Numbered from the stretch's first letter, positions 7,475 through 12,934 are shown. The stretch: 64,000 nt of DNA from a bacterium (GCA_021790255.1 JAJYIE010000001.1:4165-68164); one strand, 5' to 3'. Notes: a model not told the origin generated them from the letters alone. Made by a program: numbers and translations.

Positions 7475-8290
7475 TTACTTTCCAGGGTTACCACATTCAC
7501 CTGGTTTGACTCCATCACTCTGCAAAGCGAAGTATTCACTGCCGTTGATTTTTAAATGTTCCGCAATAACTGTTTCATTGGTTTGATATCGATAACCATC
7601 GGGCGTTGGTCCCGTTGCCCCACACTGCGGGTACCTTTCATAGGTAGCATAAGTCGGACTAACATTAGCCACCTTGTAAAGAGTAGTAAAAGTTTTCGAT
7701 AATATCTTAGTCACCAAATCCGGCTCCCGAAACATGTCTTCGTTATACTTTCCTTCCCAAAGGGTCAACTGGTAAGTCGTACCTTCCTTCGGCACAAACA
7801 CCCGGTTAGCTCCGCGGATATTATTTATCGCTCCGTCAATCGTCGCGCCACTGTAGCGGTTAGTGTTGCTTTCAAAACTAAATAAATAGCGGTCGGCAGT
7901 GTTGTCATGGCCAACCTGATGAAACTCTGACCAAACGCCCGGATAGATTTTTCCATAGGTAGCAACGCCTCTAAAGGAAATTGCCAAATGCGGCATCAGG
8001 GTGTATCGGCCCATATACTCATGTGGGCCATGAATTCCGGAGAAAACCTCAACTTTGGTAGCAGGCTGCTCCGGACTATTCCCGGCTTCAACTTTATTGG
8101 CAATTGGCAAGGAAGCCGCCACCAGCGAGGCAGCAACAGCCGCGGCGCATGCTCCACAGGCCCACCTACCTCGGCCCTTTGCCCGGGGAACTCTCAAATT
8201 ATCCGTTTGATTCTTTTCCCCAGTGACAGTCAATTCAACTTTTCGATCCATGGCAGCGGCAACTATATCTAATTTGCCGTTAACTGTCAA
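7475..8290 (-). CDS. Hypothetical secreted protein.
   Basis: 271 aa. Signal-peptide-like stretch (WACGACAAAVAASLVAASLPIA). No recognisable domain. Confidence 0.5.
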   Translation of the reverse strand: MTVNGKLDIVAAAMDRKVELTVTGEKNQTDNLRVPRAKGRGRWACGACAAAVAASLVAASLPIANKVEAGNSPEQPATKVEVFSGIHGPHEYMGRYTLMPHLAISFRGVATYGKIYPGVWSEFHQVGHDNTADRYLFSFESNTNRYSGATIDGAINNIRGANRVFVPKEGTTYQLTLWEGKYNEDMFREPDLVTKILSKTFTTLYKVANVSPTYATYERYPQCGATGPTPDGYRYQTNETVIAEHLKINGSEYFALQSDGVKPGECGNPGK

Positions 8291-8317: not shown

Positions 8318-10855
8318 TTAAGCCAAAATTTGTTCCCCGGCGATAAATTTTTCTCCCTTGGGAAGTTTTCCTGCTAAAATCAGCACCGAGAGTTTCGATT
8401 CCAGAGTATCCTGTATCAGCCGACGCATCGGTCTGGCCCCCAATACCGGGTCAAATCCCCGCCTGGTCAGGGCACTAACCAATGTTTTATCAAATTCAAT
8501 CAGGAAACCCTGATCTTTGAGTTGTTTTTGCAGCTGGGTTAGCTTAATTTGTACAATCTTTTCCAAATTTTCGGGAGAAAGCGGCTTAAACAACACCACC
8601 TCATCAAAACGGTTTATAAGCTCCGGTTTAAATATTTTCAGCAATTCCTCGCTAACCGGCTTTTTCAGCTGGTCGACACTCCAGCCCTGGCTAATTCCTT
8701 CAGCAATGGTCAGGCTGGCTGCATTGGAGGTGGCAATAATTATAGTGCTGGTAAAATCAACAGTGTGGCCTGAATAATCAGTCAGTCGCCCGTCGTCCAA
8801 AACCTGCAGGAAAACCGTCAATACTTTGGAGTCGGCTTTCTCAAATTCATCCAGCAGGATCAGCGTGTAGGGCTTATGGCGCACTTCCTCAGTCAACACC
8901 CCTTCATTGCCTTCCTCACCGATCAGTCTTTTTACAGAATCCGGAGTTTGAAACTCGGACATGTCCAGTCGTAAGAAATTGCCCTCCCCCTTAAAATATA
9001 TCTCGGAGAGAATTTTGGCCAGTTCAGTTTTACCGACACCAGTAGGCCCGACAAAAAGAAATGAACCGATCGGCCGGGTTTCTTCACGGAGGTGGGCTGC
9101 AGAGCGGCGTAGCGTATTGGCCACTGCCGAAACCGCCTCTTCCTGATCAACCAATTTTTGATGGATCAGATTTTCCAGATCCAAAAGCTGCAGTTTTTGC
9201 GCGGACTGGGCTTCTCCCACCGGAATATGGGTAATCTCTTGCACCAAACTTTCCGCCGCCGCCTTCTTTATCCAACCGTTCTCTGCCCGAGGAAGAAGCT
9301 GGGCAAAAAGCTGGAGAGCAGAATCCGGCAAACAGCGGTCATGGATATAATGCGCAGAAAGTTTCACCAGCTCTTTTTGCGCCAGCAGGGTAATATGGAT
9401 ATTGCCATGCCGCTCTTTTTCCAGAGCCCGGTTTTCCAGCACATCCAGAGTTTCCTCTGGGGATGCAGGCGGCAGGTCAACTTTTACAAAAAGACGGGTG
9501 AAACTGGCGTTTTTTTCTAAAATACGGGCAAAGCTGGCCGGATCGGTTGTGGCAATAAACTGGAAATTCGATGATTCAATGTACGGCAAAAGCAGCGAAT
9601 AGGTATTGAAGGCAGTTCCGGCCTCGCCCATTCCCAAATTTTGAATTTCATCGATACACAAAATGATATCCCCACAAAACTTCACGTCTTCAAAAATATT
9701 TTTAATCCTTTCCGCCAATTCACCCTGGGTCCTAATTCCCGTAATCAGCCCGGCAATATTCAGCCTAACCAGCTTTTTGGTGGCCAGGGCCGACGGTGCA
9801 TCACCGGCAATGATGGCTTGCGCCAGGGAATCTACCAGGGTAGTGCGGCCGGAACCTGCCTCACCGACAATAACCACATTGCGCCCCTTTTCCAAAGACA
9901 ATATATCCACTACCTGTTTGACATATTGCTGTCGGCCAATGAACTCACTTGCTTCTCCGTGGGCAGCCTTAAGGGTAATGTCCTCACTGTAATTATTCAG
10001 TTCGGGTGTAGGCACAGCTGTCCAGCCCCGGTTTACCCCGCGCAGGTGACGGGTGTGAAAATCATCATCCCAAACTGCCAATAAACGATGCGCGTTGACC
10101 TTCCGTTGCCAAAACATAGCCAGATCCCGAAAATCCTGGCTTGTTAATCCCATTTTTAACAATTTGCTGTCCAAATCCGGGATACCCAAGATATAAGCCA
10201 AAAAGAAGTGGCCGGCCGAAAGATAAGGAGCCTCTGTCTGCTTTCCGAGATCCCATGCCAGGCTAATCATCTGATCAAAGGAAGGGAGAGGAACCAGAGT
10301 AGCCAGACCGCCCGGGGTAAGTTCCAGATAAAATAGCATTTCTAAAACCTCCCGGTTTTTCAGCAGGCGGGCAAAATCTATCTCTTCTTTTTTGACCAAG
10401 CTACAGGCAAAAACCTCATCGGCATTTTTGATCTGTTTCACCTTTTTGTGGGGGGCGCTGACTACATGGTAGAAAAACAGTCCCAGGCCCAGCAGCACCA
10501 GCACTTTTGCCACTATTCCCGCTTCTTCGGGAACCATCACCGCTGCCACTGGCAGGAGCCACCATATTACTGCCAGAGTCAGCATTATGACAGAAACCGC
10601 AAACATCACCAGCAGGCCGAAAATTACCCGGAACATCCGGAAGCTGAAGCTCATAACCAGCCCGACGAAGGTCCGGTCATGAAAAAGCGGTTTAAACAGC
10701 AGGCGCAGCATCAGCCTTACTGCCAGGTCTTCTTCAAAAACAGCGAGGGTGTTGCGCCAGGAGCGCAGGAAGATAAAAAAACTTTCCTCAAACCAAAAAC
10801 GCAGCAAATGGACAGGCAAGTCAAGATAGTTCATGCGTTTAGTAATTAGTACCAA
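8318..10855 (-). CDS. ClpA/ClpC-like double-AAA+ ATPase with an N-terminal multi-helix membrane anchor.
   Basis: 845 aa. Residues ~60-140 form 3-4 hydrophobic helices, followed by a Clp_N-like repeat region. D1 has Walker A GEAGSGRTT and Walker B ILCIDEIQ. D2 has GPTGVGKTELAK, LILLDEFEKA and a GARPMRR sensor. The inter-domain linker is short with no long M-domain, and no obvious IGF/IGL ClpP-docking tripeptide is present. Confidence 0.85.
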   Translation of the reverse strand: MVLITKRMNYLDLPVHLLRFWFEESFFIFLRSWRNTLAVFEEDLAVRLMLRLLFKPLFHDRTFVGLVMSFSFRMFRVIFGLLVMFAVSVIMLTLAVIWWLLPVAAVMVPEEAGIVAKVLVLLGLGLFFYHVVSAPHKKVKQIKNADEVFACSLVKKEEIDFARLLKNREVLEMLFYLELTPGGLATLVPLPSFDQMISLAWDLGKQTEAPYLSAGHFFLAYILGIPDLDSKLLKMGLTSQDFRDLAMFWQRKVNAHRLLAVWDDDFHTRHLRGVNRGWTAVPTPELNNYSEDITLKAAHGEASEFIGRQQYVKQVVDILSLEKGRNVVIVGEAGSGRTTLVDSLAQAIIAGDAPSALATKKLVRLNIAGLITGIRTQGELAERIKNIFEDVKFCGDIILCIDEIQNLGMGEAGTAFNTYSLLLPYIESSNFQFIATTDPASFARILEKNASFTRLFVKVDLPPASPEETLDVLENRALEKERHGNIHITLLAQKELVKLSAHYIHDRCLPDSALQLFAQLLPRAENGWIKKAAAESLVQEITHIPVGEAQSAQKLQLLDLENLIHQKLVDQEEAVSAVANTLRRSAAHLREETRPIGSFLFVGPTGVGKTELAKILSEIYFKGEGNFLRLDMSEFQTPDSVKRLIGEEGNEGVLTEEVRHKPYTLILLDEFEKADSKVLTVFLQVLDDGRLTDYSGHTVDFTSTIIIATSNAASLTIAEGISQGWSVDQLKKPVSEELLKIFKPELINRFDEVVLFKPLSPENLEKIVQIKLTQLQKQLKDQGFLIEFDKTLVSALTRRGFDPVLGARPMRRLIQDTLESKLSVLILAGKLPKGEKFIAGEQILA

Positions 10856-10862
10856 CCTCTGA

Positions 10863-11222
10863 TTATTGGACTCTCACCAGATTCCCGTTGGTGTCAAGTT
10901 CAACAAAATGTTTAGCCCTCCCTTCCAGGTAAGCCGGGCACTGGTTTTGCGGTAGATCATCCATGGGTTCCCGGGGGCTGTGGACAATGTCCACCACCCA
11001 CCCCGGCATCAAATCATTGGTCAGACACGGCCCGTTGTCCATGCTCATACCCCCTGCTGCACGCTTTTTATATAGATCCACGGCAGCGGCTATTACTTCC
11101 CGCTCAGAAATTTTTCCCGTATCAATAGCAGGACGGGCTTCCAATTTTAAGACCGCTGCAGTCACTATTCCTACCCAAAACAGAGCCAGCCAAAAAATTA
11201 CTACCTTTCTTTTCTTAAACAT
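10863..11222 (-). CDS. Hypothetical small membrane-anchored protein.
   Basis: 119 aa with one N-terminal TM helix (VVIFWLALFWVGIVTAAVL). Confidence 0.45.
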   Translation of the reverse strand: MFKKRKVVIFWLALFWVGIVTAAVLKLEARPAIDTGKISEREVIAAAVDLYKKRAAGGMSMDNGPCLTNDLMPGWVVDIVHSPREPMDDLPQNQCPAYLEGRAKHFVELDTNGNLVRVQ

Positions 11223-11280: not shown

Positions 11281-11448
11281 TTAGCAGGTTTTGACATAAT
11301 TTCCTCCACCAAGGTTTTTAACCGCCCCGATAATCTCCATTTTAATGAGCGCGGCCGAAACGCCGGCTACGGGCACCTTCAGCTCCCGGCAAATTTCGTC
11401 AACATGCTTACCATCCCCGACTAAACATTCCAAAACCTCTTGTTCCAT
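11281..11448 (-). CDS. dprA: DprA C-terminal winged-helix (DML1-like) domain. It is encoded in frame downstream of the dprA TAG, so this is a split gene, a read-through candidate, or a sequencing artefact.
   Basis: Manual translation continues in the same frame after the TAG. It reads SKVKSNKLKVKSGNLSK, then MEQEVLECLVGDGKHVDEICRELKVPVAGVSAALIKMEIIGAVKNLGGGNYVKTC*. This matches the conserved DprA C-terminal pattern (EQxVLxxL...VDEI...LP...V..AL..LEL.G.V...G..Y). Confidence 0.6.
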   Translation of the reverse strand: MEQEVLECLVGDGKHVDEICRELKVPVAGVSAALIKMEIIGAVKNLGGGNYVKTC

Positions 11449-11499
11449 CTTTGACAGGTTCCCGCTTTTTACTTTTAATTTATTACTTTTTACTTTACT

Positions 11500-12372
11500 C
11501 TACCCAAGATCTTCAAATATCTCTCCCGCGTCCGTCACCAGCCTGGCTCCCTGCTTAATCAACATTGAAGGACCGAAGGATACTTCCGAGGTAATTGGCC
11601 CAGGCACAGCAAACACCTCTCTTCCTTGTTCAAGGGCATCTTTGGCAGTAATAAGCGATCCTGAATCCTCAGCAGCTTCAGTTACCAAAACTGCTTGGGA
11701 CAATCCGGAGATAATGCGGTTGCGGGCAGGAAAATTGCCGGGCAAAGATGGTTCATCGGGAGCAAACTCACTGATTAAAGCTCCTCCGCCATCAGCTATA
11801 CGATGAGCAAGGGCCAAATTTTCCGGCGGGAAAATTTTTTTTAAACCCCCACCCAAAACGGCCAGAGTTCGGCCTCCTGCTTCCAGAGCCACCCGGTGTG
11901 CCTCACTATCCACCCCACGGGCCAGACCTGAAACAACAGTTACCCCGGCCTCAGAAAGTCCGCGGGTCAGCTTCTCTGTAACCAGCTGCCCATAGCCAGT
12001 AATTTTGCGGGTACCTACAACGGCAACCGCCTTTTCATCTTCAGGCAAAGTCTGTCCGCGCACATATAAAACCACCGGCGGGTCATAAATCTCTTTTAAA
12101 AGTCGGGGGTAGTTTTCATCGAAAATGGTCAGCCAACCGATGCCAGCCTTTTCCACATCTTCCTGGTATTTTTGGGGGTCAAGTTTCCTGCGGGTTTCTA
12201 AAACGAGCGCTACCACATTTTTCGGTAGGCCGATTCGCGCCAGCTCGCGTCCGTCTGCTTCCCAGGCCAGCTTAGGATCCCCGAAATAATCCAGCACTGC
12301 CTTCAGCCTGATCGGCCCCAGACCCTTGATTGAGTGTAGCGCTAAAAGATACTCAGTATTACTAGTACTCAT
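11500..12372 (-). CDS. dprA: DNA processing protein DprA (Smf). The Rossmann/SAM portion ends at an in-frame TAG.
   Basis: 290 aa. Typical DprA core (GxGxD...VVSGLARGVDSEAHRVALEAGGRTLAVLGGGL). The stop is TAG at 11502..11500. Confidence 0.9.
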   Translation of the reverse strand: MSTSNTEYLLALHSIKGLGPIRLKAVLDYFGDPKLAWEADGRELARIGLPKNVVALVLETRRKLDPQKYQEDVEKAGIGWLTIFDENYPRLLKEIYDPPVVLYVRGQTLPEDEKAVAVVGTRKITGYGQLVTEKLTRGLSEAGVTVVSGLARGVDSEAHRVALEAGGRTLAVLGGGLKKIFPPENLALAHRIADGGGALISEFAPDEPSLPGNFPARNRIISGLSQAVLVTEAAEDSGSLITAKDALEQGREVFAVPGPITSEVSFGPSMLIKQGARLVTDAGEIFEDLG

Positions 12373-12457: not shown

Positions 12458-12934
12458 CTAAGCTTTGATTGTTTTTGACTCCATAACAGTAACCCATTCC
12501 CCAATTCCCACCTGATTTATATAATCTTTCAATACTACCCGACAATCTTTCTTGCTGGCCCAAACACTCTTTTGAATCATTGTGAAACCTAGAAGTTTCA
12601 GTTGATGGCGAAAAAGATCACGAGCCTTTCGTCTTTTTTCAGGAATATCCCAGATTACTAACCGCCATTTTCCATCCCATACCTCGTCATCCTGTCTCAT
12701 CTTAATTCGCAGAGCTTGGCTTTTCCCTTGGTCTGTTAACCTCAATGCCAGCTCTTGACCGGTTAAAAGCTCCACGAAACCTTTTTCTCTTAGCCTCTTT
12801 AAAGCTTTCGCTAGAGTAGATTTCTTGACTTCCCTCATCCCCTGAGCATATAAACTGGGGTTATAAGCAAAATCCTCAATTAGGATATATCCATCTACCG
12901 ACTTCTCGAGCGCTAACAGCATCAGCTTTGACAA
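12458..12934 (-). CDS. PaaX-like transcriptional regulator: N-terminal winged HTH plus C-terminal Cas2-like fold domain.
   Basis: 158 aa. wHTH segment STLAKALKRLREKGFVELLTGQ. C-terminal segment WDGKWRLVIWDIPEKRRKARDLFRHQLKLLGFTMIQKSVWAS, following the (Y/W)DI..RR....L...G.r.Q.SVW pattern of Cas2/PaaX_C. The ATG may be the internal M5 at 12922. Confidence 0.7.
   Translation of the reverse strand: MSKLMLLALEKSVDGYILIEDFAYNPSLYAQGMREVKKSTLAKALKRLREKGFVELLTGQELALRLTDQGKSQALRIKMRQDDEVWDGKWRLVIWDIPEKRRKARDLFRHQLKLLGFTMIQKSVWASKKDCRVVLKDYINQVGIGEWVTVMESKTIKA

Follow-up and report, generated by a model that had tools for sequence, protein, structure and literature searches.

Class-I Clp/Hsp100 ATPases are characterized by two tandem AAA+ modules (D1 and D2), the second of AAA_2 type and followed by a ClpB_D2-small domain, and by aromatic pore loops, KYRG in D1 and GYVG in D2. 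The tyrosines of these loops are the substrate-gripping elements on which canonical Clp/Hsp100 threading depends, and the D2 tyrosine of ClpB is required for translocation. ClpA divides the labour between its rings, with D2 as the main motor and D1 serving chiefly in assembly. To our knowledge, Torsins are the one Clp-related group known to lack aromatic pore loops. These membrane-associated relatives of Clp/Hsp100 are thought not to thread (PMC5425593). Here, we analysed a 64,000-nucleotide stretch of bacterial DNA (GCA_021790255.1 JAJYIE010000001.1:4165-68164, hereafter the window), which encodes on its minus strand a membrane-anchored Clp/Hsp100-like ATPase of 838 amino acids (aa; 8318..10834 (-), stop codon 8318-8320) that has lost the pore tyrosines of both rings. 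With about as much confidence as doubt, we read it as a ClpP-independent membrane ATPase, driven by D2 and carrying a structural D1 ring, that would remodel membrane-proximal partners without threading them. The gene is a typical member of a Patescibacteria-specific, membrane-anchored family of Clp-like ATPases that has no name.

Architecture of the ATPase and state of its two rings

The open reading frame (ORF) at 8318..10855 (-) encodes 845 aa if counted from TTG, whilst translation from the ATG at 10834 gives an 838-aa protein identical to database protein P0001. The ATG is the likely true start, because the 838-aa form equals P0001 and because 120 homologues, 49-58% identical to it, align from their own methionine with 95-100% coverage; no homologue supports the seven extra residues from the TTG at 10855. 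Residue numbers below follow the 838-aa form and are seven lower than those of an earlier first-pass annotation of this DNA, and all features within the protein lie on the minus strand. Motifs were placed by HMMER alignment to solved PDB structures, including ClpB (1qvr) and ClpA (1ksf), and the 120 closest homologues, which come from Candidatus Daviesbacteria and related Patescibacteria, were aligned with MAFFT to obtain family statistics.

Pfam identified AAA (residues 328-438), AAA_lid_9 (465-524), AAA_2 (594-753, E = 6.6e-47) and ClpB_D2-small (759-836, E = 5.1e-23), and thus the tandem arrangement that marks class-I Clp/Hsp100 proteins. The top NCBIfam match was ClpB (TIGR03346) with 468 bits against a curated cut-off of 1232.1, and neither ClpA (TIGR02639; 424.4 bits, cut-off 993.15) nor ClpV (369.7 bits, cut-off 884.95) reached its threshold. 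As all three scores fall far below the curated values, the sequence reads clearly as Clp/Hsp100-like, yet as the orthologue of no named Clp. Foldseek returned ClpC (E = 1e-47), ClpB and ClpA as the best structural matches. Pfam, Foldseek and the PDB alignments thereby agree with the first-pass annotation, which had proposed a protein of ClpA/ClpC/ClpB type with a Clp_N-like region and two AAA modules. The order of parts is a cytoplasmic N-terminal module, a two-helix membrane hairpin, a Clp_N fold, D1 and D2. The AlphaFold model of the full-length protein had a predicted local distance difference test score (pLDDT) of 83, and the N-terminal 283 residues reached a pLDDT of 90.6 and a predicted template modelling score of 0.79. 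Mean pairwise identity among the homologues was 0.74 in a linker motif ahead of D1, 0.72 in the D2 large domain, 0.70 in the N-terminal module and 0.60 in the D1 large domain, and 0.42 in both the transmembrane (TM) hairpin and the Clp_N-like domain.

The D2 module with its ClpB_D2-small domain (residues 560-838; 8321..9157), delimited by Pfam and by conservation among the homologues, is catalytically complete and is the most constrained AAA part of the protein. Its Walker A (GPTGVGKT), Walker B (LILLDEFEKA), sensor-1 (N704), arginine finger (R742) and sensor-2 (GARPMRR) are canonical; all 120 homologues keep K602, D662, N704, R742, R801 and R805, and 119 of them keep E663. The description of D2 as canonical made at first reading thus holds for the Walker motifs, sensors and arginine finger, but not for the pore loop, which is shortened and contains no aromatic residue. 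The remnant of this loop, RLIGEEGNEGVLTE (8888..8929), bears a six-residue deletion relative to ClpB that removes GYVG, such that ClpB GAPPGYVGYEEGG corresponds to GEEGNEG. At the D1 pore-loop position, ITGIRTQGEL (9716..9745) aligns to ClpB AGAKYRGEF with threonine in place of tyrosine; across the loop, ClpB AGAKYRGEFE corresponds to TGIRTQGELA, and KYRG has become RTQG. The absence of both tyrosines, which had been overlooked, is the most unusual feature of the protein and sets it apart from class-I Clp/Hsp100 proteins with their aromatic loops.

This loss extends across the family. Both pore tyrosines are also absent from the consensus of the 120-homologue Daviesbacteria family and from 29 distant members, and the residues of the D2 pore loop are variable within the family. 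Our searches collected 248 full-length Clp-like proteins, 217 with an N-terminal hydrophobic anchor and 31 without, and an aromatic D2 pore motif was found in none of the anchored proteins compared with 23 of the 31 non-anchored ones. With the tyrosines needed for canonical threading missing, the label 'unfoldase or disaggregase' given to the protein at first reading is unsupported.

The D1 module (residues 286-530; 9245..9979), delimited by Pfam AAA and AAA_lid_9 and by alignment to ClpB D1, has degenerate catalytic features. Its Walker A, GEAGSGRTT (residues 324-332; 9839..9865), lies opposite ClpB GEPGVGKT and places Arg330 at the lysine position. This lysine-to-arginine change had been proposed in the first-pass annotation, and the ClpB alignment bears it out, with no conventional lysine at the position; since the codon CGC (9845-9847) is at least two substitutions from any lysine codon, the arginine is not a read error. 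The same position is lysine in 99 of the 120 homologues and arginine in 21, the arginine forms being scattered within the nearest subclade, and an independent lysine-to-arginine change was seen in protein P0240. Such a substitution typically preserves nucleotide binding and cripples hydrolysis, as in RecA K72R and AAA+ mutants, and the earlier suggestion that D1 binds ATP but does not hydrolyse it would be a reasonable inference. The D1 Walker B, ILCIDEIQ (9641..9664), had been called a variant, but follows the canonical hhhhDE pattern with its DE pair in place, the cysteine being the sole oddity. Its first acidic residue is aspartate in 45 homologues, glutamate in 72 and another residue in three, and the Walker A lysine and Walker B Asp-Glu pair are both kept in just 22 of the 120. 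In distant relatives the D1 Walker motifs are gone altogether and D2 is still invariant. Most of the 217 anchored proteins have a degenerate D1, through lysine-to-arginine or DE-to-EE changes or loss of Walker A. Of the two D1 arginines the protein in the window retains R447, and it also keeps the sensor-1 threonine. These patterns support a D1 that is under relaxed catalytic constraint and catalytically compromised, and the change to arginine is one step of a family-wide decay of this ring. The resulting natural series, from lysine with DE, through arginine or EE, to no Walker motifs, could be used to probe a 'dead' first ring.

The cytoplasmic N-terminal module (residues 1-66; 10637..10834) comprises a long amphipathic helix and, after it, the motif EEDLAVxLMxxLLFxPLFHD...FR, and is defined by invariant residues, by conservation on a par with D2 and by stand-alone homologues described below. 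It matched no Pfam or NCBIfam family, and nothing informative was matched by residues 1-130 in PDB, Pfam or NCBIfam. The membrane hairpin (residues 70-126; 10457..10627) is delimited by Kyte-Doolittle hydrophobic peaks at residues 70-101 and 107-126, by AlphaFold helices and by a positive-inside charge count. AlphaFold placed a long helix at residues 3-37, a helical hairpin at 56-100 and 103-126, and a helical domain at 135-250. The hairpin has a short outside loop, PEEAG (102-106), and no external domain. Lysines and arginines number nine ahead of the hairpin, zero in the loop and four just past it, a distribution which indicates an N-in/C-in topology with both AAA rings predicted to be cytoplasmic. 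Hydropathy, AlphaFold helices and charge bias thus concur with the tether proposed earlier, and the hydrophobic block is real rather than an artefact of the start codon; it makes two membrane passes, not the three to four helices first counted. The anchor is kept at full coverage in the 120 homologues.

Beyond the hairpin, a divergent Clp_N-fold domain (residues about 135-250; 10085..10432) shows the Clp_N double repeat, with weak support at the sequence level (no Pfam match; profile E-value 0.0024). Between Clp_N and D1 lies a family-specific linker motif, WDxDF....HLRGVNRGW..PTPxL (residues 255-285; 9980..10072), which shows the highest conservation anywhere in the protein and is also kept in distant members. 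The segment WDDDFHTRHLRGVNRGWTAVPTPEL at residues 255-279 fits the linker pattern of the family, WxxD[FY]....GGVNRGW...TPxLD.

A canonical ClpP-docking loop could not be found. The aligned position, EGISQGWSVD (8672..8701), has QGW opposite VGF of ClpC and IGL of ClpA, and [LIVM]G[FLMW] occurred at this position in 0/120 relatives, in keeping with the missing IGF/IGL-type tripeptide reported at first reading. The region aligned without gaps to QKGW of Thermus thermophilus ClpB, a protein that does not bind ClpP. A tblastn search with Escherichia coli ClpP found no clpP in the window or in 81 related loci. The protein also has no M-domain, because ClpA (1ksf) residues 168-729 align to residues 278-828 as one continuous stretch, whereas the ClpB alignments split into two stretches that flank the M-domain and skip it; the D1-D2 linker is about 30 residues. 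The earlier remark that this is not a typical ClpB M-domain can therefore be taken further, to no M-domain at all.

Membership and spread of the family

Scanning one genome per species for the pattern HL[KR]G[VI]NRGW returned 68 loci, essentially all from Daviesbacteria or Microgenomates metagenome-assembled genomes, and a degenerate DNA pattern for GG[VI]NRGWT.R.TP, which favours one subclade, returned 21 loci from metagenomes. An exhaustive phmmer search with residues 1-287 yielded 125 cluster representatives in two groups. The first comprised full-length proteins of 830-880 aa with 25-31% identity, all lacking both pore tyrosines. The second comprised about 60 small proteins of 105-155 aa that matched only residues about 10-100. 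A profile search with diverse N-terminal regions gave nothing above threshold, probably because hydrophobic words swamped it, and is silent on the spread of the family.

The small stand-alone modules are encoded just ahead of a Clp-like ATPase of 830-846 aa, their genes overlapping or abutting the ATPase gene. Candidatus Paceibacterota typically have this split form; there, a module gene of its own, encoding 113-118 aa, directly precedes the ATPase gene. The split-form ATPase carries two TM helices of its own, a Clp_N-like region and an N[QR]AWTA.PTP.LD motif. Its D1 appears dead or dying: most members have no recognizable Walker A, locus L074 has GNSNLEQT for Walker A and L077 has YIPDIH for Walker B. 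The D2 of the split form is canonical, with the pore tyrosine absent. Members can be recognized by the module motif LAVxLMxxLLFxPLFxD...FRxxR together with a TM hairpin, either fused or in an adjacent small gene, and by a catalytically complete D2 without pore tyrosine next to a relaxed or degenerate D1, all of which the window gene displays.

Public records name these proteins 'ATP-dependent Clp protease ATP-binding subunit', 'ClpC', 'ClpA' or 'AAA family ATPase', the first of which is probably misleading. The searchable literature on Patescibacteria/candidate phyla radiation (CPR) groups with Clp, AAA+ or membrane terms described no membrane-anchored, tyrosine-less Clp family. Mentions of clpP and clpB in a TM7x transcriptome paper were set aside as they refer to host genes. 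PF20030 (bpMoxR), listed for many homologues, was likewise dismissed, as it is a weak sub-threshold match to D1 and no N-terminal domain. Pore-loop tyrosines have been treated as essential in Clp/Hsp100 threaders, and more than 200 Patescibacteria sequence clusters are found here without them. That a gene of about 2.5 kb is widely retained in the tiny genomes of Patescibacteria makes it likely to be important for membrane or envelope biology.

Three proteins from non-CPR, high-GC bacteria (P0344, P0346 and P0351; 940-1147 aa) combine a Clp-like double AAA with a C-terminal PCRF/release-factor-like domain. P0344 and P0346 keep the D1 pore motif KY[IV]GE, and all three have lost the D2 pore loop; an N-terminal TM segment was predicted in P0344 and P0346, and none in P0351. 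The PCRF fusion echoes the adjacency of ATPase and prfB genes described below.

Proposed mechanism and competing explanations

Our proposal is that the protein would form a Clp-like hexamer with its N-terminal (D1) face against the inner face of the membrane. D1 would bind nucleotide and serve ring assembly or regulation, largely as in ClpA, and D2 alone would power the conformational cycle. Without gripping pore loops or a protease partner there would be no processive threading or unfolding; instead, the N-terminal module and the Clp_N domain would hold partners close to the membrane, and ATP-driven ring movements would remodel or gate these partners or bring about their assembly or disassembly, by a working principle analogous to that presumed for Torsins. 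We favour a remodelling or switching function because aromatic pore loops grip substrates and Torsins, which have none, are not thought to thread. The protein is probably no classical unfoldase, because the gripping tyrosines, the protease-docking loop and the DnaK-coupling domain are all absent. A perfectly conserved D2 accompanied by these losses, a gained anchor and a new module suggests a different use of the Hsp100 ring.

The resemblance to Torsins is one of functional analogy, not of membership. Both are derived from Clp/Hsp100 and have an N-terminal hydrophobic membrane segment, Torsins being D2-related proteins of the eukaryotic endoplasmic reticulum (ER) and nuclear envelope. Torsins have a single AAA module with no arginine finger of its own, need LAP1/LULL1, with activation by a degenerate AAA cofactor, and act in the ER lumen, whereas the protein described here is bacterial, faces the cytoplasm, and has two modules and its own invariant D2 arginine finger. 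A broader view, which we offer tentatively and with less confidence than the remodelling mechanism itself, is that this is a bacterial counterpart of the Torsin principle: a new Patescibacteria-wide membrane machine that has abandoned threading and acquired a dedicated small membrane subunit, fused here and separate in Paceibacterota, with a half-size MFS protein in some lineages. As for its role, one possibility is that D2 couples ATP hydrolysis to how an envelope, secretion or division complex is gated or assembled. Another possibility is the handling of translation-termination or stalled-translocon events, an idea prompted by tight adjacency to prfB in many lineages and by the independent fusions of Clp-like and release-factor-like domains outside Patescibacteria.

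Several points weigh against remodelling without threading. The mechanism is deduced from motifs that are absent, and the loss of aromatic residues is no proof that nothing passes the pore. A complete D2 motor that is so strictly conserved implies that real mechanical work is done, and D2 has the arginine finger that Torsins do not. The predicted geometry suits a membrane-protein extractor, as the N-terminal face by which Hsp100 proteins take in substrate points at the membrane. Within D1, the sensor-1 threonine and one arginine finger are kept in more than 90% of close relatives; since these and, in this protein, the Walker B DE pair remain, D1 may hydrolyse ATP slowly. Finally, no conserved partner is common to all lineages, and the neighbourhood differs between clades.

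Several of these points bear on the strongest competitor, a non-canonical threading dislocase that would pull membrane proteins, or stalled secretory or nascent chains, from the bilayer through the pore, with non-aromatic loops or the N-terminal module doing the gripping. Such a protein would resemble FtsH minus its protease, or Msp1. Like FtsH and Msp1/ATAD1, ours is an AAA+ ring set on the cytoplasmic membrane face by N-terminal TM helices, with its entry face to the bilayer, and the N-in/C-in hairpin that sets the D1 face at the membrane would suit extraction as well as the fully conserved D2 motor does. Those proteins belong to a different AAA+ clade, however, with a single classical AAA module and aromatic pore loops, and FtsH additionally has a protease domain and a periplasmic domain; our protein shows none of these features. 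An Hsp100 acting at a membrane is known in Plasmodium HSP101 of the PTEX translocon, but HSP101 is soluble, keeps its pore-loop tyrosines and M-domain, and docks through its D2 face on a separate pore protein.

Gene order outside Daviesbacteria also speaks for a dislocase. In other Patescibacteria the gene belongs to the block secA-(121 aa)-(endonuclease-IV-like)-ATPase-prfB-x-ftsE-ftsX-pcsB. The prfB gene (RF2) lies directly 3' of the ATPase in 18 loci, often 0-5 nt away, and in two more with a half-size MFS gene between, so that the arrangement is present in 20/20 informative non-Daviesbacteria loci (among L079-L081 and L084-L104), counts that are not independent as 21 metagenome loci were chosen with a motif favouring one subclade. 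The half-size MFS-like protein (203-221 aa), which matches the N-terminal six-helix half of MFS transporters, is encoded directly downstream of the ATPase in four lineages, sometimes overlapping it (L077 9014-9661, L080 7591-8202, L083 7495-8160 and also L104), and is absent from the window. Set against this are the family-wide lack of pore-loop tyrosines with a short and variable D2 loop, the lack of a protease, whether as domain or as partner, to clear away extracted chains, and the absence of the secA/prfB context from the window's own clade. On balance we regard a dislocase as possible but doubtful.

The established Clp activities fare much worse. An ordinary ClpC/ClpA-type unfoldase feeding ClpP is what the database names imply, and the Clp_N fold, the two AAA modules with ClpB_D2-small at the end of D2, the absence of a long M-domain, the collinearity with ClpA and the top Foldseek match to ClpC are all shared with that group. 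Unlike ClpA and ClpC, the protein carries a membrane hairpin and a novel N-terminal module, has pore tyrosines in neither ring, has arginine for lysine in the D1 Walker A and scores under half of the family cut-off in NCBIfam (424 against 993 for ClpA). With the [LIV]-G-[FL] docking tripeptide (IGL or VGF in those proteins) in none of the 120 relatives and no clpP in the window or the 81 related loci, this explanation is hardly credible. A disaggregase of ClpB type that acts at the membrane together with DnaK would account for the best sequence matches, which are to ClpB D2 (1qvr, E = 8e-114), the region of highest similarity, for the top NCBIfam match and for the gap-free alignment of a ClpP-loop region that, as in ClpB/Hsp104, has no docking motif. 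It is nonetheless very improbable, if marginally less so than ClpP feeding: the coiled-coil M-domain, which in ClpB/Hsp104 is inserted in the D1 small subdomain, is absent, and a linker of some 30 residues, collinear with ClpA, joins D1 to D2, leaving no means of DnaK/Hsp70 coupling, the D1 KYRG is replaced and the D2 GYVG tyrosine deleted, the protein is membrane-anchored, and the ClpB score of 468 stands against a cut-off of 1232.

We give next to no credence to a decaying, non-functional Clp gene or to an anti-phage defence component of the DolB-like kind listed in PADLOC. Degenerate D1 motifs and a PADLOC DolB match of 124 bits over D2 could be taken to favour it, but more than 200 genomes carry the ORF intact and at full length, D2 is invariant, the N-terminal module is highly conserved and the synteny (mreCD-PBP2-dprA...topA) is stable and of housekeeping type, with no adjacent defence partner. 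The DolB match, and one to PDC-M37B, were rejected as evidence of defence as both are restricted to the generic AAA_2 region. ClpV/TssH of type VI secretion was also rejected, given the unreached cut-off, the neighbouring dprA and topA, and the lack of type VI secretion genes.

Genomic neighbourhood

The minus-strand order in the window is a PaaX_M-like gene, dprA, a 119-aa protein, the ATPase, a 271-aa ORF, topA and CTP synthase. In Daviesbacteria the block mreC-mreD-PBP2-dprA-small protein-ATPase-...-topA is conserved, and dprA, the 119-aa protein and topA are the constant neighbours across about 70 loci. The 119-aa protein (10863..11222 (-)) ends 28 nt ahead of the ATPase start and has a membrane helix at the N terminus as well as a conserved GPCL...NQCPAY domain with two cysteines. 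It matched no known family and shows 50% identity to its counterpart in locus L002. Its gene immediately precedes that of the ATPase in 65 of about 73 Daviesbacteria loci, and it is a probable co-transcribed partner of the ATPase.

Downstream of the ATPase, a secreted protein of 115-127 aa is encoded directly in 45 Daviesbacteria loci (e.g. L002 8511-8894) with 62-82% identity, and is missing from the window. The 271-aa ORF found there (7475-8290 (-)) was rejected as a partner as it is confined to this organism. A near-consensus promoter-like sequence, TTGACA-17-TATAGT (8290-8262), falls on its TTG start, and the real start may be further in; promoter and terminator scans over 6.5-12.6 kb gave counts no higher than in shuffled sequence. 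Upstream, dprA is split in this organism (11281-12372 (-)) into a 290-aa DNA_processg_A ORF (11500-12372) and a 55-aa ORF (11281-11448) that carries the DprA winged-helix domain, where related genomes have a single gene of 358-363 aa; this could be a frameshift, a nonsense change or a genuine split. A 158-aa PaaX_M/Cas2-like protein is encoded between PBP2 and dprA (12458-12934 (-)), as it is in the same place in locus L005.

Large membrane genes occupy 36-64 kb, including two with a YfhO C-terminal match and others matching PMT_2, TMEM260-like and PTPS_related, alongside a gene for a 2274-aa protein with GT2 and MG2 domains and one for a radical-SAM/B12 enzyme. The region probably serves glycosylation of the envelope and has no bearing on the ATPase. 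The first-pass annotation had suggested that the ATPase might serve quality control of the envelope proteins encoded nearby, but the glycosyltransferase-like genes lie 25-50 kb away and are never syntenic with it in related loci. GC skew is negative over roughly the first 56 kb and positive from there to the end at 64 kb, with the cumulative minimum near 56 kb, and the minus-strand gene for the 2274-aa protein sits in the positive-skew part.

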